Assembly (NCBI GenBank): GCA_016205145.1
Contig: JACQJH010000002.1
Location: forward strand, 605,307 to 637,306
Reading direction: 5' to 3'
Source: Candidatus Iainarchaeum sp.
GTDB lineage: Archaea > Iainarchaeota > Iainarchaeia > Iainarchaeales > JACQJH01
Length of the DNA: 32,000 nucleotides
Below the pieces are notes generated by a model. That model was not told the DNA's origin and made no database searches. It saw nothing but the letters and a program-made list of their open reading frames with translations. Shown piece after piece: positions 19,318-28,646 of the stretch. Position 1 is the stretch's first letter; each line of letters opens with the position of its first letter. The position numbers and the translations under genes were made by a program.

Positions 19318-20418
19318 CTATTTTTTGTATTTCGCACAAAGCCCTTTCCTGAAGGCGGAAAACCTGTTTTCCTTTATCGCAAGCCTCGCCTCTTTCATGA
19401 GGCGCTGCGTGAAAAACAGGTTGTGCCAGGAAAGATAGCGCTGGCCGTTTTCCTCATGCGTCCTGAACAGATGGTGCAAAAACGCGGAAGAAAAATTCCG
19501 GCAGACAAAGCAGCCGCAGGTTTCGTCCAATGGTTTTTGCAGGAAACGGTTTGTCGCAAGGTCGATGTTTTTCTTGCCTTGAAACGTAAAGACATGGCCG
19601 TGCCTTGCCATGCGCGTTGGAAAACAGCTGTCGAAAACATCCGCACCCAACGCGATTGCGTCAAGCAGGTCAGCAGGCGAGCCGAGGCCCATGACATACC
19701 TCGGCTTGTCCTCCGGAATGAACGGCATGCAATAGCCGGCAATCCTGTTCATCACGCTTTTCGGTTCGCCGATTGAAAGCCCGCCAATGGCGAGGCCATC
19801 AAAATCGAGTTCGTTGAGCGCGAGAACGCTTTTTTTGCGCAGGTCCTTGAATTTTCCGCCCTGGCAGATGCCGAACAAAAGCTGTTTTTTGTTCGAATGC
19901 TCTGCCTTGCAGCGCTTCGCCCAATCCGTTGTGCGCTGCACTGCAACCGCAACCTGCTTCTTCGACTTGTCATGGCTGGGCACGTCATCCAAGACCATTG
20001 CAACGTCGCTGCCCAAAGAGTTCTGGATTTGAATGCATTTTTCCGGTGAAAGGAATGCGTTGACGCGGTCGAAAGGATTGTGGAAGGAAACGCCTTCATC
20101 GGAAATGCCCCGGAAAAACTGCTGGCGCAGGATCTGGAAGCCGCCGGAATCCGTGAAAATGCCGCGCTTCCACCCGATAAAGGAATGCAGGCCGCCCGCA
20201 TCCGCAATCGCCTTCAGGCCCGGCCTGAGCGAAAGCAGAAAAGAGTTGGATATAATGGTTTTGGTGCCGAGCTGTTCCAACTCTTTCGTGGAAATGAATT
20301 TCACCGCGCCCTTTGTTGCGACGGGCATGAAAAGAGGCGTTTCAACTGTTCCATGGCAAAGCTTCAGCCTGCCGGCCCTGGCGGAAGTTTTCCTGTCCGA
20401 ATGCAAAAGCCTGAACAT
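19318..20418 (-). CDS. tgt: tRNA-guanine transglycosylase, catalytic domain only, bacterial/eukaryal (queuine/preQ1) sequence type
   Basis: FTDSGGFQI, LLFGICQGG, LAIGGLSIGEP, DKPRYVMGLGSP, FDSCFPTRMARHG and zinc motif CGCFVCRNFSSAFLHHL. ATG at 20418 (the track adds an upstream TTG). Confidence 0.85.
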   Translation of the reverse strand: MFRLLHSDRKTSARAGRLKLCHGTVETPLFMPVATKGAVKFISTKELEQLGTKTIISNSFLLSLRPGLKAIADAGGLHSFIGWKRGIFTDSGGFQILRQQFFRGISDEGVSFHNPFDRVNAFLSPEKCIQIQNSLGSDVAMVLDDVPSHDKSKKQVAVAVQRTTDWAKRCKAEHSNKKQLLFGICQGGKFKDLRKKSVLALNELDFDGLAIGGLSIGEPKSVMNRIAGYCMPFIPEDKPRYVMGLGSPADLLDAIALGADVFDSCFPTRMARHGHVFTFQGKKNIDLATNRFLQKPLDETCGCFVCRNFSSAFLHHLFRTHEENGQRYLSWHNLFFTQRLMKEARLAIKENRFSAFRKGLCAKYKK

Positions 20419-20456
20419 CAAAAAATTTGGCGGAAAAACGCTTAAAAACCGGAAAG

Positions 20457-20469
20457 TTATTATTAAAAG
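20457..20469 (+). promoter_or_regulatory. TATA-like box for the SRP RNA gene
   Basis: TTATTATTAAAAG is centred ~28-30 nt upstream of the predicted 5' end of the RNA at 20494. Confidence 0.5.
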
Positions 20470-20493
20470 CTTCAGCGCGCAAAAGCTTGTTTT

Positions 20494-20762
20494 GGCTAGG
20501 TTGGGGCGCTGGCGGTGCCTTGTTACCGGAAACCCGCTTTATGCCGGAACCGAAAAACGGGGGAAGGGCAGAACCGGAGAAAAAAGGCGCCTTTCAGGCG
20601 TTGACGCTCTGTCCCTGCAGGTTTTCAGCAGGAATGAAACCCGCCAGGTCCGGAAGGAAGCAACGGTGGTTTCGGCGGGGAACGCTGCAGGGGAAACGGA
20701 GAACAGCAGGGAAGGCGGAAAAACTTTTTTCCGAGGCTTTGTTCGACCCCCGCCACGCCATT
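20494..20762 (+). ncRNA. ffs: Signal recognition particle RNA (7S/SRP RNA); ends approximate
   Basis: CAGGUCCGGAAGGAAGCA at ~20654-20671 is identical to the universally conserved helix-8 SRP54-binding motif with GGAA tetraloop. The 5' segment GGCGCUGGCGG can pair with the 3' segment CCGCCACGCC. A UGUUACC Alu-domain-like loop is present, and the tract is GC-rich and structured in an otherwise non-coding gap. Confidence 0.85.
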
Positions 20763-20839
20763 TATACATAAGGAATTGGGCGAAAAATCGGAAAGAATAA
20801 ATATAACAAAAAAAAGATTAGTGTTAAGGGAAAAATTTA

Positions 20840-21260: not shown

Positions 21261-22394
21261 TTATTGCTGCACGAATTTTTTTATTTCCCGCTCAACAGAA
21301 GAAAGCGCATTCCGCACGCTGGTCAGGGCGCTCCATCCCGAATCCTTTGCTATGAAAAGCTTTCCCGCCGAATTCAGCCTGACCGAAACATCGTACTTGT
21401 GCCTTGCACCGGAAGCGCTGAGTTCCTTGAAATGCACGAACAGGATGATTTCATTGTGCAGCAGCATTTCAGCCTTGTCGTAAAGCGCGTCCAGGGAACT
21501 GCTGAAGGTTGCGGCGTCAATCTCATCGAAAGCCGGGCAATCGCTGACCTGGATGTTCCTGCCGGGCCCGGATTTCAATGCATCAAATGCCTTCAGCAGG
21601 TTCGTGATGGTCACTATGCCGCGGGGCCTGCCGTCAAAAATTATGACGCTTGAAACGTTTGCCCTGGACATTTTCTGGACAATGGCCGGCAACGATTCTT
21701 CTGGCGAGGCCGTCACGATTGTTTCAGGCGAAAGCCTGCTTTTCACCAGGACGCCTGAAATGGTCTCGTTCTCCTTGAAAGCCTTCATCGAATACCCCAT
21801 ACTCGACCTTACCCCGCCCTTCTTTTTCGGCGGGTGGATCAGGAAATTCCGCATCAGGTCGGTGAAGGAAACTACTCCGACCAGCACGCCGTTCCTGTCG
21901 GCCAAGGGAATCTTGTCTATGCCCTTCTTGCGCATTGCGGAAAACGCCTGCGAAAGCGTCGAGCTGTCAGGCAGCGAAATGAAATCCTTTGTCGCAATGT
22001 CCATTGCCTTCATTGCGCGGAGCTCGCCGAAACTGTTTATGCTCCGCAAAACCGAAGAATGGGTGACAACCCCAAGCAGCTTGTTCTTGTCAAAAACCGG
22101 GAGAGTGCGCAGGCCGGTTTCAAGCATGAGCTTGGCAATCCTTTCAACCGGGTCCGCGGGTGAAAGCGCGGGCGCCTTTTCAGTGACTGAAGAATTGCTC
22201 ACCTTGGAAAAGTCCTTGGTGCCGCGGTAAAGGGAGCGCCATGAAACAATGCCCGAAAAATTTTTCCCGTCAAAAACAAGCGCGTTCTTGTTCTTTGTAG
22301 AAATGAACTGGTTCATTGTCTTTGAAACCGGGTCGGAAGCGGAAACCCTCAGAAAATCGCCGTCAACAAGATCGGCCGCAGAAACCTTCGCCAT
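21261..22394 (-). CDS. Four-CBS-domain protein fused to a C-terminal HPF/RaiA (ribosomal S30AE)-like domain
   Basis: Four CBS repeats occupy residues ~1-270. Residues 279-377 show the beta-alpha-beta-beta-beta-alpha pattern and consensus-like positions (RHK..V.V.L..G.L.A; SALTSVRNALSSVEREIKK). A GAGGTGA Shine-Dalgarno sequence lies 7 nt upstream of the ATG, and the gene starts 11 nt downstream of tpiA. Confidence 0.8.
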   Translation of the reverse strand: MAKVSAADLVDGDFLRVSASDPVSKTMNQFISTKNKNALVFDGKNFSGIVSWRSLYRGTKDFSKVSNSSVTEKAPALSPADPVERIAKLMLETGLRTLPVFDKNKLLGVVTHSSVLRSINSFGELRAMKAMDIATKDFISLPDSSTLSQAFSAMRKKGIDKIPLADRNGVLVGVVSFTDLMRNFLIHPPKKKGGVRSSMGYSMKAFKENETISGVLVKSRLSPETIVTASPEESLPAIVQKMSRANVSSVIIFDGRPRGIVTITNLLKAFDALKSGPGRNIQVSDCPAFDEIDAATFSSSLDALYDKAEMLLHNEIILFVHFKELSASGARHKYDVSVRLNSAGKLFIAKDSGWSALTSVRNALSSVEREIKKFVQQ

Positions 22395-22405
22395 AAAATC
22401 TCACC

Positions 22406-23077
22406 TCAAAAACCGCTGACAAGGTCAAGCATTGCCGCCTCGGGAGAGGAAACCTTTATCACGCCGGAAGCGACAAAAATGCCCTTTGCGCCAAGCTCCA
22501 TTGAAACCCGGACATCCTCGGCTGACTTGACTCCGGCGCCGACAAGCAATGGAATGCCGTGCTTTGAGACCGCCTCGACGCACTCCGCAATCAGGTCCGG
22601 CTTCGCAGTCGAAACCGAAACATTCCCGCCGATCAATTCAGGGGGTTCGAACGCAATCAGGTCCGGCTTCGACGCAAGCGATGCGATTGCCCCGGCCCGT
22701 TCAACGGTTTCAGCGCACGCCAAAACATTCAGGCCCGAGCCTTTGGCGATTGAAATCGATTCAGCAAGGCATGGCGCGTCGATTTTGCGCTCCGCATGGT
22801 TGAGCACGGTGCCGGATGCTCCGGCTTCCTTAACTGCTTCCGCAAGCACCTGGCCGGTATGCGCGCCCGGCCTGATTGCGTCAACGTGCTGGCAGAAAAC
22901 CGGAATCGAAACGTTCTCGGAGACAAGCCGCAGGTCGGCTGCCTGCGGCACGACGCAGACGCAGTGCTCCGATTGCAACGAAACCCGCTCGGCGGCCTTC
23001 GCCAAAGCCAGGGCATTCCTGCCGGTGGACTCGGAATAGGTTTTGAAATTCACGAAAAGGCATGGAACCCCGAGCAT
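22406..23077 (-). CDS. tpiA: Triosephosphate isomerase, short archaeal type
   Basis: 223 aa with VNFKTYSESTG, VLNHAERK and LLVGAGV motifs typical of archaeal TIM. Confidence 0.87.
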   Translation of the reverse strand: MLGVPCLFVNFKTYSESTGRNALALAKAAERVSLQSEHCVCVVPQAADLRLVSENVSIPVFCQHVDAIRPGAHTGQVLAEAVKEAGASGTVLNHAERKIDAPCLAESISIAKGSGLNVLACAETVERAGAIASLASKPDLIAFEPPELIGGNVSVSTAKPDLIAECVEAVSKHGIPLLVGAGVKSAEDVRVSMELGAKGIFVASGVIKVSSPEAAMLDLVSGF

Positions 23078-23133: not shown

Positions 23134-24111
23134 TCAGATCCATTTCTGTTTCCGGAAATACATCAGCATTGCCGCCGCAACCACTGCCATCAGGCCCAGC
23201 GCCAAGAAATAGCCGTACTGCTGCCCCCAGGCCGAATGGATTTCCGGCATGTACTTGAAGTTCATGCCGTAAATGCCGGCGATCAGTGAAAGTGGAAGGA
23301 TTATTGTCGCGATAATCGTCAGCACTTTCATTGTCTCGTTCAGCCTGTTGGAAATGGTCGAGGCGTAGCCGTCAAGTATGCCGGTCAGAATGTCCCTGTA
23401 ATTGTCCATCACGTCCGACACGCGTATGAGATGATCGTAAACGTCGCGGAAATAAATCGAGAGCTTCTGCGGAACGAATTTCTGCTCGCGCAATGCAATC
23501 GCCATCAGCACTTCCCTTTCGGGGGTGATTATTTTGCGCAAAGAAAAAATAGAGCGCTTCATTTTGAATACGGCCCTGAGGATTTCCTTTGAAGGGTTGT
23601 CGAAAACCTGGTTCTCGAGCCGGTCTATGTCGTCGCCGAAAACGTCAAAGACCGGAAAGTACGAGTCCACCAGAAGGTCCAGGACAAGGTAAAGCATGAA
23701 TGCCGGGCCGCGCGAAAAAAGCTGCGGGTTTTTTTCCATTGTCTGGATGGCCTCGCCGATTGCCGGAACGCCGTCTTCGCTTGACGTGACTAAAAAATTC
23801 TTTCCAAGGAAAAAATCGAGTTCGGATGTCGAGGCGCCGTGCTTCGAATAACTCACGGCGTATGAAACTATGAACAGGTGATCCTCGTATTCGTCGATTT
23901 TCGGACGCTGGATCGGATGCAGCGTATCCTCCACTGCAAGCGGGTGCAGCGGAAAAATTTTTGAAAGAAACGCCATGTCGTCCTTGGAAGGCTTTGAAAT
24001 GTCGACCCAGACAAAAAATCCTTTGGGCGGGTTTTTCATTATTTCCGGGAGCCTGGCTGCAGGACATTCAACCGGCTTTTTCCCGTCAAAATAAAAAACC
24101 CTGCCGATCAT
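23134..24111 (-). CDS. corA: CorA-family magnesium/cobalt transporter (ATG 24111; the track extends to TTG 24126)
   Basis: YGMNFKYMPE (GMN motif) sits between two C-terminal TM helices, preceded by a large cytoplasmic N-terminal domain. Confidence 0.87.
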   Translation of the reverse strand: MIGRVFYFDGKKPVECPAARLPEIMKNPPKGFFVWVDISKPSKDDMAFLSKIFPLHPLAVEDTLHPIQRPKIDEYEDHLFIVSYAVSYSKHGASTSELDFFLGKNFLVTSSEDGVPAIGEAIQTMEKNPQLFSRGPAFMLYLVLDLLVDSYFPVFDVFGDDIDRLENQVFDNPSKEILRAVFKMKRSIFSLRKIITPEREVLMAIALREQKFVPQKLSIYFRDVYDHLIRVSDVMDNYRDILTGILDGYASTISNRLNETMKVLTIIATIILPLSLIAGIYGMNFKYMPEIHSAWGQQYGYFLALGLMAVVAAAMLMYFRKQKWI

Positions 24112-24176
24112 CGGAGCACCGTTCAAAGTAAAAAGCGGGAAAGAAGTATTTAAGCTTTTCAGGAAACAATATTGTT

Positions 24177-26039
24177 GTGGCTCACCTTACTTTTGAATCC
24201 CTGGAAAAGGCTGTCAGCGAAACGCCCGGCATGAGGTCCGGCAGGATCAGGAAGGCGTGGGAGTTCGCGAACAGGATTCACGCAAACCAGGCCTATGCCG
24301 GCAGGGGCTTTACCCAGCACCTGCTTGAGGGCGCGGAAGAGGTTGCAAGCCTGGGCCTTGACGAGGAAACAATAATCGCGGAACTGCTGCACAACGCGAT
24401 TGATACCGGAAAGGTGCCGGCGAACGAGGTTGAAAGGCACTTCGGCGGCGAAGTGGCGAGGATTGTTTTGGAACTCACAAAAATCCGGGAGATACTGAAC
24501 AAAAACCCGAACCTCAAGCCAGGATACACAGAATCCATAATCCTTGCCTCGGCAAAGGACATCCGGACAGTCATAATCGCCATTGTGAACAGGCTCACGA
24601 CCCTGCGCTCGATAAGCCATTTTCCTGCGGAGGACGCGAAACGCATTGCCAGAACCTCGCTTTCCGTTTTCGTGCCCATAGCGCATAAGCTCGGATTGAT
24701 GGGCATAGCCGCCGAAATGCAGGACCGGAGTTTCCGGGTTCTTGAGCCGGAAAAGTTCGAGGCCGCACGCAGGGTTTCGGGCAACCGGCCGGAACTTGAA
24801 AAAAAGCTCGCCGAAGCCGAAGCCGAGGTTTCGGAAAAGCTTGCGGAACAAAAGCTTAATGCGACAATCACCGGCAGGGTGAAAACGCTTTACAGCATTT
24901 CGAAAAAGCTTGAAAGGAAAAAAGACAATGAAATGCTCGACCTGCTCGGCATCCGCATAATCTGCAATTCGCCGGAGGAGTGCTATCAGATCCTTGGCAC
25001 GGTGCACTCGCTTTACCAGTTCCATCCCGAGGAGTTTTCCGATTACATCGCGAAGCCGAAGCAGAACGGCTACCAGAGCATCCACACTTTGATAAACTGG
25101 CACGGCACCCCCCTGGAAATCCAGATCCGGGACTGGCGCATGCATTCGGAAGCCGAATCCGGGCTGTCGGCGCACTGGCATTACAAGGAATTCGAAAAGA
25201 ACAAGTACTTTGACAAGCGGCTTTCATGGGCAAAAGAGCTTGCGGAATGGGGAAAGGGCAGAGGAAAAAGCGAACTTGAAAAAATCGCCGCCCTGACAAT
25301 CGGCGGCAATGAAATCTTCGTGCTGACGCCGAAAAACGAGGCGATTGTCCTGCCGAAAGGCTCGACCCCTGTTGACTTCGCGTTCGCGGTGCACTCCGAC
25401 GTGGGATTCAACTGCCACCAGGCAAAAGTCAACGGCAAAATGGTTCCACTGGAAACCGAACTGCAGAACGGCGACCAGGTTGAAATCCTGACGACAAAAA
25501 AAAAGCAGGCGAAAAGCCTGTGGCTCGGCTTTGTGAAAAGCCTCAAGGCAATCCAGAAAATCAAGCAGGCGCTCGGCATAAGGTCCGTGGAAAAAAAGCC
25601 GGTGAAGGAGAAACGCTTTGTGGAAATCGGAAAGGACAACCGCGTCAGAATGGCGAACTGCTGCAACCCCCTGCCTGGCGACAAAATAATAGGGTACAGG
25701 ACGACAAAGCGCAAAATAGCAATCCACAAGGCCGACTGCAAAGCCCTTGGAACCCTGTCGTCGTCAAAAAAAGTCGACGTTGACTGGTCGGACAGGCTGC
25801 TCAAAAGCTACACAGCGAAAATCTTCATAACCGGCAGGGACAGGGTCGGGGTGATGCGCGACATACTCGAGGTGTTCTCGGCGAACAAGGTCAATGTCGA
25901 GGGAATTGACGGCAGGACAAGCCAGAACGGAAGCTTCGAGGCAGCGATAACCGCAAAAATCAAGAGCGCGGAAGAGGTCGAAAAGCTGCTCGGAAAAATC
26001 CGCAAAGTCGACTCCATTGCAGGCGCCGAAAGGAGATAG
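24177..26039 (+). CDS. Long RelA/SpoT homolog: degenerate HD hydrolase domain, (p)ppGpp synthetase, TGS, Cys-rich and ACT domains (GTG start 24177, alternative ATG 24231)
   Basis: Synthetase motifs GRVKTLYSISKKL, DLLGIRII, YIAKPKQNGYQSIHT, EIQIR and AHWHYKE. TGS segment is IFVLTPKNEAIVLPKGSTPVDFAFAVHSDVG, followed by CCNPLPGDKIIGY...IHKADC and a C-terminal ACT-like fold. The hydrolase HD motif reads LLHNAID. Confidence 0.88.
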   Translation: MAHLTFESLEKAVSETPGMRSGRIRKAWEFANRIHANQAYAGRGFTQHLLEGAEEVASLGLDEETIIAELLHNAIDTGKVPANEVERHFGGEVARIVLELTKIREILNKNPNLKPGYTESIILASAKDIRTVIIAIVNRLTTLRSISHFPAEDAKRIARTSLSVFVPIAHKLGLMGIAAEMQDRSFRVLEPEKFEAARRVSGNRPELEKKLAEAEAEVSEKLAEQKLNATITGRVKTLYSISKKLERKKDNEMLDLLGIRIICNSPEECYQILGTVHSLYQFHPEEFSDYIAKPKQNGYQSIHTLINWHGTPLEIQIRDWRMHSEAESGLSAHWHYKEFEKNKYFDKRLSWAKELAEWGKGRGKSELEKIAALTIGGNEIFVLTPKNEAIVLPKGSTPVDFAFAVHSDVGFNCHQAKVNGKMVPLETELQNGDQVEILTTKKKQAKSLWLGFVKSLKAIQKIKQALGIRSVEKKPVKEKRFVEIGKDNRVRMANCCNPLPGDKIIGYRTTKRKIAIHKADCKALGTLSSSKKVDVDWSDRLLKSYTAKIFITGRDRVGVMRDILEVFSANKVNVEGIDGRTSQNGSFEAAITAKIKSAEEVEKLLGKIRKVDSIAGAERR

Positions 26040-26090: not shown

Positions 26091-26828
26091 TTGAACAGAG
26101 TCAAAACCGGAGTGAAAGGCCTCGATGAAATAATCGAAGGCGGTTTCCCGGAAGGAAGGACCGTGCTTGTCACTGGCGGGTGCGGAACCGGCAAGACGAT
26201 AATGGCAATGCAGTTCATTTATTCCGGCGCAAAGGAATTCAATGAAAACGGGGTTTACGTCACCCTTGACGAGCGGCCGGACCTTGTCAGGGAAGACATG
26301 CTCAAGTTCGGCTTTGACCTGAAGGCGCTGGAAAGAGACGGAAAAATCCACCTCATTGACGGCAGTGTGGCGAAAATCGGCCTGCCATCTGACGAGGAAT
26401 ATTCACTGCCGGTGACGGGGTTCGACCTGGACAAGCTGCTTCTGGAAATAATGCGGTCAATCAAAAAAAACAACGCAAAACGCATTGTCATTGATTCGAT
26501 CCCGGCGCTGGGCCTCAACTTTGAAAACGAGCAGGAAGTCCGGAAGGCAATCATAAAGCTCGGGTACATTCTGCAGCGCGCCGGCGCGACAGTCATAATA
26601 ATATCGGAAATAGAGGATGAGCAGAAGCTGAGCAAGTACGGCGTCGAGGAGTTTGTCGCGGACGGCGTGATAGTGCTGCATTACCTTGGCGTGGGAAGCC
26701 ACAGCAACCGCACGCTGCACATAAGAAAAATGCGCTCCACAAAGCACTCCGAAGAAGTGCACCCGCTCAAAATAACCGAAACGGGGATAAAAATCGGAAA
26801 AATAGGCGCCGACTACTCCAAAGTTTAA
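26091..26828 (+). CDS. KaiC-like / RadA-paralog (aRadC-type) single-domain RecA-superfamily ATPase, TTG start
   Basis: GLDEIIEGGFPEGRTVLVTGGCGTGKT (Walker A) and RIVIDSI (Walker B). A strong AGGTGGGGG Shine-Dalgarno sequence lies 8-10 nt upstream of TTG 26091. Confidence 0.8.
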   Translation: MNRVKTGVKGLDEIIEGGFPEGRTVLVTGGCGTGKTIMAMQFIYSGAKEFNENGVYVTLDERPDLVREDMLKFGFDLKALERDGKIHLIDGSVAKIGLPSDEEYSLPVTGFDLDKLLLEIMRSIKKNNAKRIVIDSIPALGLNFENEQEVRKAIIKLGYILQRAGATVIIISEIEDEQKLSKYGVEEFVADGVIVLHYLGVGSHSNRTLHIRKMRSTKHSEEVHPLKITETGIKIGKIGADYSKV

Positions 26829-26884: not shown

Positions 26885-28507
26885 TTACAGTTCCTTAAAC
26901 CGCTTCGCGCACTTTTCCCTGCCCAGGCCGAGGACAAGCGAGCCGATTTTCGGCCCTTTTGGCCTTCCGATGAGGGCAAGGTAAGCAAACTCAAAAGCCT
27001 CTTTCGGGCTCTGGCCGCCGGACTTGGCCAAATCGAAAAAAGATTTCTGCAAATCCTCGGCGGATTTCCCTGAAACTATTTCAGACGCAAATTCCCTGAA
27101 CACGGGCAAAAGGCCTGCCGGCATTTTTTTGCGGAGCTCCGGCGCAAGCGTTTCGGCGAACGCGATTTTTTCCTCGGCAGGAACGTGCAGTTCAACCCAT
27201 CTGCGGCAATGCGCAATCCTCTCCGAAATCTGCCTCAGGCCTTCCGCGGAATTGCCCGGAACGTGCCCGAGCTCACGGAGCTTTTCAAGCACGCTTTCAT
27301 CATCCGGCAGGACCTGCACAAGATATGAGACAAGCGCGAAATCCGCGGGCAGGGGCAAAACCTTCCTGCTTTTCACGGATGAAAACAAAAAAAGCTTTTT
27401 CAGCTGGGCGCCGTCCTTTTCATCCGCGGAAACACCAGAGTAAAATGCCTCGGCCGCCCTGTCAAGCTCAAGCTCAAGGTTCGGCACGTCAAGCCAGGAA
27501 AAGCTGCGCGTCTTCTCAAGGCGCTTCAAATACAGGAACTTGAGGGTTTCAGGCCTTGCCACCTCAAGCCACTGGTGTGGAAAAACCACATTGCCGAGCG
27601 AAGCGGACATTTTCTGGCCGTCAATCAGCAAGTGCTCATAAAAGACCGGCACAGGCATGGGATAGTGCAAAACCCTTTCACAGATTTCGGCGTTCACAAA
27701 AAAAGCCGAGTTAGGCGCATTGTATTCCTTGCCCGCGCCCTCCGCCACCACATTCCAGCGTTTCCACTGCGAAGCCCACTCGCTTTTCCACGCAAGCTTG
27801 CCGTTCGCCTTGTTCAAATCCGAAACGCCCACATGGCCGCAGCCTTTCGCGGTGAACTTCTCAAACGCGTAATCCTTGCATTCGTACCTGACTTTTGTTC
27901 CTTCAACGCCAAGGACATTCGTTGTCTGCATGTTCCCGCACCTGTCGCAGATCGGCTTCCATGGAATCCAGCCGGCATCAGATTTGTTGTCCTTGAACTT
28001 GTCCACTATGCCACGCACTTCCGCTGCGTGCCCTACAAGCTCCAGGATGTGCTCGGTGAAATTGCCTTTCCTGTACTCGTCGCGCATCGAAAAGACTTCC
28101 GGCGGGAATTCCAGGAACTCCTCAAAAGTCCTGAGGAAAATTTCCTTGAAATGCCCGGCATAGCTTTCATGGCAGCCGAAAGGATCAGGCGCGTCGGAAA
28201 CGGAAAAGCCTATGAACTCCTTGAATGACTGCGGAACCCCCTCCGGAATTCCCCTCAGCGGGTCCATGTCCTCGGTGACATAGATGAATTTCGCGCGCGA
28301 TTCATGCTCCGCAAGGGCGCGGAAGGCCGCTTCGCCGCGGATGATGTCACTCAGCCTGCCGATATGCAGGACGCCCGAAAGAGAAGAGGAGCTTTTCACG
28401 CTCGGCGATTTTATTTCCGGAATTTCATCCGGCAAAAAATGGAATTTTTTCCTTTCCAAAACCTGGCGCGCAATCTTGTCGGCCCAGAACAGAGAATCCG
28501 AAGGCAT
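26885..28507 (-). CDS. lysK: Lysyl-tRNA synthetase, class I (start at ATG 28507; the track ORF extends to 28561)
   Basis: SGVLHIGR (HIGH-like) and KMSAS (KMSKS-like) class I motifs. About 540 aa. Confidence 0.9.
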   Translation of the reverse strand: MPSDSLFWADKIARQVLERKKFHFLPDEIPEIKSPSVKSSSSLSGVLHIGRLSDIIRGEAAFRALAEHESRAKFIYVTEDMDPLRGIPEGVPQSFKEFIGFSVSDAPDPFGCHESYAGHFKEIFLRTFEEFLEFPPEVFSMRDEYRKGNFTEHILELVGHAAEVRGIVDKFKDNKSDAGWIPWKPICDRCGNMQTTNVLGVEGTKVRYECKDYAFEKFTAKGCGHVGVSDLNKANGKLAWKSEWASQWKRWNVVAEGAGKEYNAPNSAFFVNAEICERVLHYPMPVPVFYEHLLIDGQKMSASLGNVVFPHQWLEVARPETLKFLYLKRLEKTRSFSWLDVPNLELELDRAAEAFYSGVSADEKDGAQLKKLFLFSSVKSRKVLPLPADFALVSYLVQVLPDDESVLEKLRELGHVPGNSAEGLRQISERIAHCRRWVELHVPAEEKIAFAETLAPELRKKMPAGLLPVFREFASEIVSGKSAEDLQKSFFDLAKSGGQSPKEAFEFAYLALIGRPKGPKIGSLVLGLGREKCAKRFKEL

Positions 28508-28646
28508 AACAACAACATTCCAGAAAAAAAATAAAAATGCGCCAGTGAAACGCAAAAACAAACATCAGATTTAAAAACAGAAGAACTCTTATAAATAACG
28601 CTGAAAAGCAATCACCAACAAAGAGGTGTAAAATAAAATGGCAGCT

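Follow-up and report, generated by a model that had tools for sequence, protein, structure and literature searches.

A Probable RelA-like (p)ppGpp Synthetase Native to Iainarchaeota and Its Reciprocal Hydrolase-Type Partner

The window, that is, the whole stretch of 32,000 nucleotides of Candidatus Iainarchaeum sp. analyzed here (assembly GCA_016205145.1, contig JACQJH010000002.1, positions 605,307 to 637,306 of the forward strand), carries at 24177-26039 on the plus strand an open reading frame (ORF) of 620 aa that starts with GTG and encodes a long RelA/SpoT homologue (RSH). Judged from its domains, its residues, and a structure model, the protein belongs to class [hS], in which the hydrolase is dead and the synthetase live; this form is called type A in what follows. 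Most probably, it is a native archaeal enzyme, vertically inherited, that serves as a RelA-like synthetase and whose partner, a second RSH called type B, has been lost in this genome. The enzyme is predicted to work like RelA, yet it is no orthologue of proteobacterial RelA. This outcome corrects the idea of a stray bacterial gene, which had been put forward in an initial annotation of the same DNA.

Long RSHs and the stringent response have been classed as bacterial and plastid features, and archaea were listed as being without long RSHs by Atkinson et al. (PMC3153485). According to Li et al. (2021; PMC8407392), 69% of Diapherotrites have RelA/SpoT, which also occurs in further DPANN phyla and which these authors regard as acquired from bacteria; with this, such genes were already on record for DPANN archaea, against the remark that they are atypical in archaea. 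The presence of (p)ppGpp has been demonstrated in no archaeon so far (PMC8646023). Nothing on archaeal long RSHs appears in the supplements of Jimmy et al., and the literature search found no paper on the reciprocal types A and B, on the missing helical domain, or on genomes with type A only. Rinke et al. (2013) reportedly noted a SpoT-like gene in Diapherotrites. In short, RelA/SpoT in DPANN is already known, and it is the variant features described below for which no published description was found.

Domain Architecture and Structure Model

The four families named in the initial annotation are all matched by Pfam. Starting from the N-terminus, they are HD_4 (PF13328; residues 27-174, 24255-24698, 2e-28), RelA_SpoT (PF04607; residues 233-338, 24873-25190, 9e-37), TGS (residues 380-439, 25314-25493, 1e-20), and ACT_4 (residues 543-619, 25803-26033, 1.5e-14), all on the plus strand. 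The HD_4 fold is thus followed by the RelA_SpoT nucleotidyltransferase, as in long RSHs; the TGS domain, which includes His406, is also supported by the alignment to E. coli RelA, and the ACT domain (RRM-like) aligns with the C-terminus of that protein. At the level of the family, the ORF is barely inside RelA/SpoT, with 501 bits against a cut-off of 499 for the NCBIfam model TIGR00691 (spoT_relA), and it scores far under both the RelA and the SpoT equivalogs.

The layout was taken at first to be that of a complete long RSH, and on this point the initial annotation needs revision. The C-terminal region does contain the TGS, a CCHC zinc finger, and the ACT, but the alpha-helical (AH) domain between TGS and zinc finger is reduced, with ∼95 residues missing relative to the bacterial enzymes. 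What is left is a remnant at residues 440-487 (25494-25637, plus strand), made of two short helices and a disordered linker, and the Pfam family RelA_AH_RIS gives only a weak and partial match (0.0017, 18.9 bits against a cut-off of 23.8, profile positions 94-179 only). The zinc finger, or ribosome-intersubunit (RIS) domain, follows at residues 488-535 (25638-25781, plus strand), with C495, C496, H517, and C521 as ligands. The deletion is shared by type A, in which 100-108 aa separate the TGS motif from CCxPxPGD, versus 196 aa in one bacterial reference.

The AlphaFold2 (AF2) model, built from an input alignment of 49 sequences, is confident (pLDDT 86, pTM 0.81), and residues 472-487 are disordered (pLDDT <50) where the helical domain would sit. 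Its top Foldseek matches are ribosome-bound RelA (5iqr), full-length SpoT (7qpr), and fragments of Rel, together with a weak match to the tRNA pyrophosphokinase CapRel. The best superposition is that on the N-terminal region of Rel (6s2u), with a root-mean-square deviation of 2.7 Å.

The protein can be compared with several known systems. E. coli RelA (PDB 5iqr, 5kpv), also of class [hS], is its best Foldseek match and its second-best sequence match in the PDB; both proteins couple a live synthetase to a dead hydrolase, with an acidic motif in place of RXKD (EFDD in RelA, EFSD here), and both have the TGS His, the CCHC zinc finger, and the ACT. However, orthology is contradicted by the RelA equivalog NF008124 (340 bits against a cut-off of 728), and the archaeal protein, whose host ribosome is archaeal, is ∼125 residues shorter owing to the alpha-helical deletion. 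The bifunctional Rel enzymes of Firmicutes and Actinobacteria (8fr8; B. subtilis 6yxa; T. thermophilus 6s2u; RelSeq 1vj7) have the same domain order, and the M. smegmatis enzyme 8fr8 is the closest of all in sequence (8.8e-103); unlike the protein described here, they have intact HD, ED, and DRLHNMRT, carry RXKD, and possess the full alpha-helical domain. Lastly, the SpoT of Moraxellaceae (Acinetobacter baumannii, 7qpr) is the second-best structural match and the one with the highest TM-score (0.56).

A Degenerate Hydrolase Beside an Intact Synthetase

To register the hydrolase residues, M. smegmatis Rel (8fr8) served as a reference, as did 8 and then 180 bacterial Rel proteins. Measured by the residues that define the hydrolase state of bifunctional enzymes (the Mn2+ ligands H-HD-D, the ED pair, and N148), the 620-aa protein retains 2 of 7 catalytic positions, the survivors being two metal-binding His, H48 and H72. 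The degenerate hydrolase proposed in the initial annotation therefore survives correct registration, and so do its details: the LHDxxED motif is broken, with HD changed to HN by the codons cac aac located exactly at 24390-24395, and ED changed to DT; the ADRLHNMRT-like stretch is altered, DRLHNMRT reading NRLTTLRS; and in the HxxQxRKSGxPY region the R-K of the substrate loop is replaced by gap-Y. In addition, D144 is changed to N and N148 to T. The HD domain thus appears to keep its fold after losing five of the seven catalytic residues, which would leave it only a structural or regulatory role. E. coli RelA retains a dead HD domain for reasons of this kind, both structural and regulatory.

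Could the domain still hydrolyze (p)ppGpp by a noncanonical site, so that the enzyme is bifunctional and no second hydrolase is needed? H48 and H72 remain, both metal-binding Asp have become the isosteric Asn, and the genome has no second RSH hydrolase; moreover, purifying selection on this domain persists in this lineage, since its omega is 0.089 when compared with L165, a metagenomic relative whose protein is 81% identical. On the other hand, N148, the ED pair, and the R-K that contacts the substrate have all been lost, and the other type A proteins have A, E, S, T, K, or gaps at these places, with no alternative catalytic set shared among them. The HD is also the least conserved domain of type A (27% mean pairwise identity), and E. 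coli RelA is the precedent for a dead HD domain kept for structure and regulation. A bifunctional enzyme is, on this balance, very unlikely, and a synthetase-only protein is the reading retained here.

The synthetase is a different case. Its catalytic score is 7/7 (R234, K236, D255, R260, E314, Q316, R318), the guanine-binding residues N297, Y299, and H303 are present, and the GRxK, DxxxxR, EIQIR, and N-Y-H signatures are consequently all found in the domain, as the initial annotation had read from its motifs. The three guanine contacts occur in 56/65 type A proteins. By its residues, the enzyme would be RelA-like and synthetase-only, a prediction made earlier for this ORF that extends to 65/65 examined members of the archaeal type A. 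A further feature of RelA concerns the TGS, the best-conserved type A domain (53% identity, and omega 0.040 against L165): in the alignment, His406 falls on the DFAYxIHS His of E. coli RelA. That His is the sensor of the 3′ CCA end of uncharged tRNA.

Two Reciprocal Types in the Order Iainarchaeales

Many relatives in the order have two long matches instead of one. When these were cut out, they gave 27 copies of type A and 15 copies of type B. In all the type A copies the hydrolase site is degenerate, with unrelated residues at the catalytic positions, and the synthetase is intact. Type B is its mirror image: HxxQxRxSGxPY, LLHDVxEDT, and KLADKLHNxRT are intact in every copy, while in the synthetase GRxK and the GxRI Arg are gone, and most copies show KVYI[AR]T in place of EIQIRT. 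Counted over 283 sequences, the classes separate cleanly into 65 [hS], 24 [Hs] with the hydrolase live and the synthetase dead, and 180 bacterial [HS] with both sites intact. Every type A protein (65/65) scores 6-7/7 for the synthetase and 0-4/7 for the hydrolase, and every type B protein (24/24) scores 6-7/7 for the hydrolase and 1-3/7 for the synthetase.

The division reaches beyond the catalytic sites. Type A proteins have the TGS His in 65/65 cases and type B proteins in 0/24; for the CCHC zinc ligands, the counts are 63/65 and 0/24, respectively. The RXKD motif, present in 177/180 bacterial Rel, is replaced in type A, most often by xxDD as in the EFDD of E. coli RelA. Conservation follows the same lines: in type A the synthetase (47%), TGS (53%), and zinc finger (48%) domains all exceed the HD, and in type B the HD (46%) exceeds the synthetase (37%). 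Type B proteins, of ∼570 aa, have neither an alpha-helical domain nor a zinc finger, and in this they differ from the SpoT [Hs] of A. baumannii (7qpr), which they resemble as long RSHs with a live hydrolase and a dead synthetase. Across 40 relatives, type B is never seen without type A. Taken together, A and B appear to represent a RelA/SpoT-like division of labor reached independently, since type A lies in an archaeal clade outside all the sampled bacteria (see below) and its loss of hydrolase would accordingly be separate from that of E. coli RelA.

Type B is encoded between arginyl-tRNA synthetase (ArgRS) and leucyl-tRNA synthetase (LeuRS) genes, in the order ArgRS→B←LeuRS, in 8/8 relatives (L155-L162). 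As a side observation, type A lies near the genes of lysyl- and seryl-tRNA synthetases (LysRS and SerRS), so both RSH types are found among aminoacyl-tRNA synthetase genes.

Two further forms were met on the way. A third RSH of 463-466 aa (L026 and L027; G002 and G033; family f3) combines a degenerate HD with an intact synthetase and a TGS but has neither zinc finger nor ACT, and it sits on a very long branch (length 3.7-4.6) inside the type A clade. Besides type A, a few relatives have stand-alone synthetase-like ORFs of 206-322 aa, which are candidate small alarmone synthetases; short ORFs of this kind are found at G024:C4:148436-148795, G036:C11:67970-68413, and G034:C87:1769-2089.

Native Status of the Gene

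The host genome (1.25 Mb in 2 contigs, 97.8% complete, 0% contamination) belongs to Iainarchaeota (Diapherotrites). An RSH homologue occurs in 36/40 genomes of the order Iainarchaeales and in 119/151 genomes sampled across the phylum, each of them at least 80% complete, and the named homologues are labeled “Candidatus Diapherotrites archaeon” and “Candidatus Iainarchaeum archaeon”. In L165 the gene order CorA-RSH-KaiC-like-LysRS is identical to that of the window, and the comparison of the two RSH genes gives a dN/dS of 0.098 overall and of 0.04-0.16 per domain, the dead hydrolase included, with dS ∼1.2 and therefore near saturation. To describe the gene as bacterial-type within an archaeal backbone does not fit its order-wide presence, its synteny, and a GC equal to that of its flanks.

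The alternative is that the segment is a bacterial contamination, a chimeric join, or a recent bacterial transfer. In its favor are the best-scoring named non-archaeal matches, which are Firmicutes-like Rel with ∼40% identity, and the classical description of long RSHs as absent from archaea (PMC3153485). Nevertheless, the same neighborhood recurs in 18/20 relatives’ loci as well as in L165, nearly the whole order carries the gene, its GC of 0.52-0.53 runs flat into the flanks, and an archaeal signal recognition particle (SRP) RNA and archaeal aminoacyl-tRNA synthetase genes lie on the same contig. The nearest homologues are, in addition, all of the archaeal short-AH architecture, and the bacterial sequences form a separate clade (100/98). 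Synteny, wide distribution, composition, and purifying selection thus exclude contamination or recent import as far as sequence can tell; the chance that this alternative is correct is negligible, and the possible chimeric assembly of which the initial annotation had warned is opposed by the first three of these. A native gene is the reading followed below.

Phylogeny and Origin of Type A

The tree (95 rows, 653 columns; IQ-TREE with LG+C20 PMSF and a careful search) has all 43/43 sampled bacterial enzymes on one side of a branch (100/98), among them those of Actinobacteria, Firmicutes, Acidobacteria, Chloroflexi, Proteobacteria, and others. The other side holds compact enzymes of ∼563 aa, type B, the bifunctional archaeal enzymes of Woesearchaeota type, and type A. 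A phylogeny had been suggested as the way to identify the donor lineage; once run, it failed to name a bacterial donor phylum, because many phyla form a single clade (100/98) and the archaeal forms are outside of it.

Type A is nested within the Woesearchaeota-type bifunctional short-AH enzymes (100/99) and descends from a bifunctional archaeal enzyme. These compact RSHs of ∼636 aa (P0030, P0061) are the closest outgroup to type A and share with it the short alpha-helical domain and the zinc finger, but they differ from it because both their sites are intact (7/7 and 7/7), RXKD is kept, and their neighbors are Kae1/TsaD and PurF instead of triosephosphate isomerase (TIM) and the KaiC-like gene. 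Their group is archaeal by context, with RpoH and a split RpoB next door. The Woesearchaeota-type RSH of L133 and L134 is always preceded by Kae1/TsaD, and PurF, an enzyme inhibited by (p)ppGpp in bacteria, follows it in one contig.

The position of type B is less sharply drawn. In the best tree, the Woesearchaeota-type enzymes and type A group together to the exclusion of type B. A constraint that unites type B with the compact enzymes whose genomic context resembles that of bacteria of the Candidate Phyla Radiation (CPR), and which have the same architecture as type B, is not rejected against the quick tree (p-AU 0.82), and its log-likelihood falls short of that of the careful tree by only ∼5.5 units. 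This CPR-like group, bifunctional and of ∼563 aa, is bacterial by context (bL19, sigma-70, DprA, TopA, ParB, bS6), and it is the bacterial group nearest to the archaeal enzymes in the tree. Type B may go back to an old paralogy, or it may have been imported separately from CPR bacteria; a duplication giving A and B within the order is not shown by the tree. A side observation on the compact group is that in the metagenome and NCBI contigs L128-L130 the ∼563-aa bifunctional Rel, without alpha-helical domain and zinc finger, is encoded between topA and parB.

Loss of Type B and Candidate Hydrolases

In the whole genome, RelA_SpoT and HD_4 are each matched only once, in both cases within the 620-aa ORF. 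At the place where type B would be expected, ArgRS (C1:588635-590395) abuts LeuRS (C1:590423-593224) with a 27-nt spacer, inside one contig. Because the type A tree has two main subclades and type B partners are found in each of them, the absence of type B is best read as a secondary loss. The state with type A only is found in ∼16/40 relatives, including one closed genome, and it appears stable across the whole of family f11, in which 24/26 genomes have a RelA_SpoT-domain match, almost always a single one.

Which enzyme, then, could degrade the product? No Ppx/GppA was found in this genome. The only candidate substitute hydrolases in it come from the NUDIX and HD families, two generic proteins from each; of the NUDIX pair, one is IDI-like and the other, at C1:89837-90184, is MutT/RppH-like, and neither reaches any NCBIfam cut-off. 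The NUDIX counts across the 40 relatives show no pattern separating genomes with A only from those with A and B.

Proposed Mechanism and Its Significance

By analogy with RelA, the enzyme would be recruited to the archaeal ribosome, and a deacylated tRNA in the A site would switch it on, the prerequisites for this, His406 and the CCHC zinc finger, being present. It would then move pyrophosphate from ATP onto GDP or GTP, with a linker between TGS and zinc finger that is ∼95 residues shorter than the bacterial one. As the norm in Iainarchaeales, type A would be partnered by type B, hydrolase-only, synthetase-dead, and tRNA-blind, the pair being an archaeal analogue of RelA and SpoT. In this genome and in whole sister families, where B appears lost and no other RSH hydrolase is seen, (p)ppGpp might be removed by a non-RSH enzyme, by dilution, or kept low by tight control of its synthesis.

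Some observations weigh against this scheme. First, D replaces T after EIQIR (T319D) in this protein and its near relative, while 62/65 type A proteins have T, and the same two proteins have EFSD, not EFDD, where bacterial bifunctional Rel has RFKD; with these substitutions the activity could be altered. Second, in the bacterial enzymes solved on the ribosome the alpha-helical domain spans the distance from TGS to zinc finger, and the geometry may differ here. Third, a synthetase without a recognized hydrolase breaks the bacterial rule that the former is accompanied by the latter (PMC3153485), and the product or the role could be different.

Related to these points is the question of whether the fold serves some role other than the alarm: synthesis of (p)ppApp, pyrophosphorylation of tRNA, or control by the KaiC-like protein or by ACT-bound metabolites without the ribosome. 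This would agree with the missing alpha-helical domain, with the genomes that have type A and no RSH hydrolase, with the weak Foldseek match to CapRel, and with the KaiC-like gene conserved just downstream under its own Shine-Dalgarno. It is at odds with N297, Y299, H303, and the full set of catalytic residues, which fit (p)ppGpp synthetases and, as regards the three contacts, recur in most type A proteins; with the tRNA-sensing His and zinc finger being precisely what A keeps and B loses; and with the survival of the KaiC-like orthologue in genomes without RSH. Such a role is unlikely, if less so than a residual hydrolase, and a RelA-like (p)ppGpp synthetase is preferred.

A broader proposal can be offered only tentatively, as it is more doubtful than probable: that Iainarchaeota run a ribosome-coupled stringent response on an archaeal ribosome, with a compact RelA-like sensor that does without the alpha-helical domain, and that the lineages with type A only use a non-RSH hydrolase or a one-way dormancy switch. 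Such a switch would perhaps be linked to the putative CBS-domain hibernation factor and the KaiC-like ATPase encoded nearby.

If true, Archaea would have their first working (p)ppGpp system, and the RelA/SpoT split would have been reinvented independently. A whole archaeal order seems to keep a sensor-type synthetase and a separate hydrolase under purifying selection, inactivated reciprocally as RelA and SpoT are, with the tRNA-sensing His and the zinc finger retained in the synthetase only. These proteins can be cloned, and they allow several questions to be posed. Can an archaeal ribosome activate an enzyme of this kind as RelA is activated? Is the alpha-helical domain dispensable? And how is such a synthetase tolerated by a cell that has no RSH hydrolase?

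Promoter and Neighboring Genes

A TATA-like box, TATTTAAG, occurs with a purine-rich upstream stretch at 24147-24154 on the plus strand, 23-30 nt 5′ of the GTG, and is a candidate archaeal promoter. The block AAAGAAGTATTTAAGCTTTTCAG upstream of the gene and the GTG itself are 100% conserved in L165, in spite of synonymous sites near saturation in the coding sequence, which makes plausible the native archaeal expression suggested in the initial annotation. The AGGA between the TATA-like box and the GTG is not conserved in L165. A TATA-driven RSH mRNA, leaderless or nearly so, is favored, because the block and the start codon are conserved and the intervening AGGA is not; the promoter function is to be read as putative.

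As for the flanks, their archaeal character, noted at the outset, is borne out by the SRP RNA, the TIM, and the class I LysRS, but TIM and LysRS are not the immediate neighbors, as a CorA gene comes first upstream and a KaiC-like gene downstream. The KaiC-like single-domain ATPase (26091-26828, plus strand; Pfam KaiC 3.7e-74) begins 51 nt past the RSH stop, with a strong Shine-Dalgarno, GGTGGGGGG, before its TTG start. It adjoins type A or sits near it, downstream on the same strand, in 18/20 relatives’ loci, directly in about half of them, and its identity among these loci is 46-71% (mostly 58-71%), versus 32-41% for the RSH. The gene is a probable operon partner of the RSH. Dependence of the KaiC-like gene on the RSH was considered and rejected, given that genomes lacking an RSH still have orthologues (61-65% identity), and for this reason a functional link between the two is only a hint.

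On the other side, a CorA Mg2+/Co2+ transporter, identified by profile matches (23134-24126, minus strand), is the immediate divergent neighbor; it has the same position in L165 and in 3/20 of the wider loci. The archaeal-type TIM (22406-23077, minus strand; NF003302, 249 bits) is upstream of type A in 13/20 relatives’ loci, often with LysRS and SerRS nearby, and in the window the class I (archaeal) LysRS (26885-28561, minus strand; TIGR00467, 247 bits) is a nearby gene conserved by synteny. A multi-CBS-domain protein (21261-22394, minus strand), two to three genes upstream of the RSH, is a putative ribosome hibernation factor, and it adjoins TIM and RSH in 4/20 relatives’ loci, which would place hibernation and alarmone synthesis in one gene neighborhood.

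Farther upstream, the Archaea_SRP RNA (Rfam RF01857, 124.5 bits) lies at 20489-20764 on the plus strand, where it was masked by spurious ORFs spanning 20033-20800. The tRNA-guanine transglycosylase (19318-20421, minus strand) scores as a bacterial queuine-type Tgt, with 418 bits against a cut-off of 307 for TIGR00430, versus 158 bits, under the cut-off of 350, for the archaeosine ArcTGT profile; three relatives (L139, L150, and L152) have homologues of 50-54% identity in the vicinity of the RSH.

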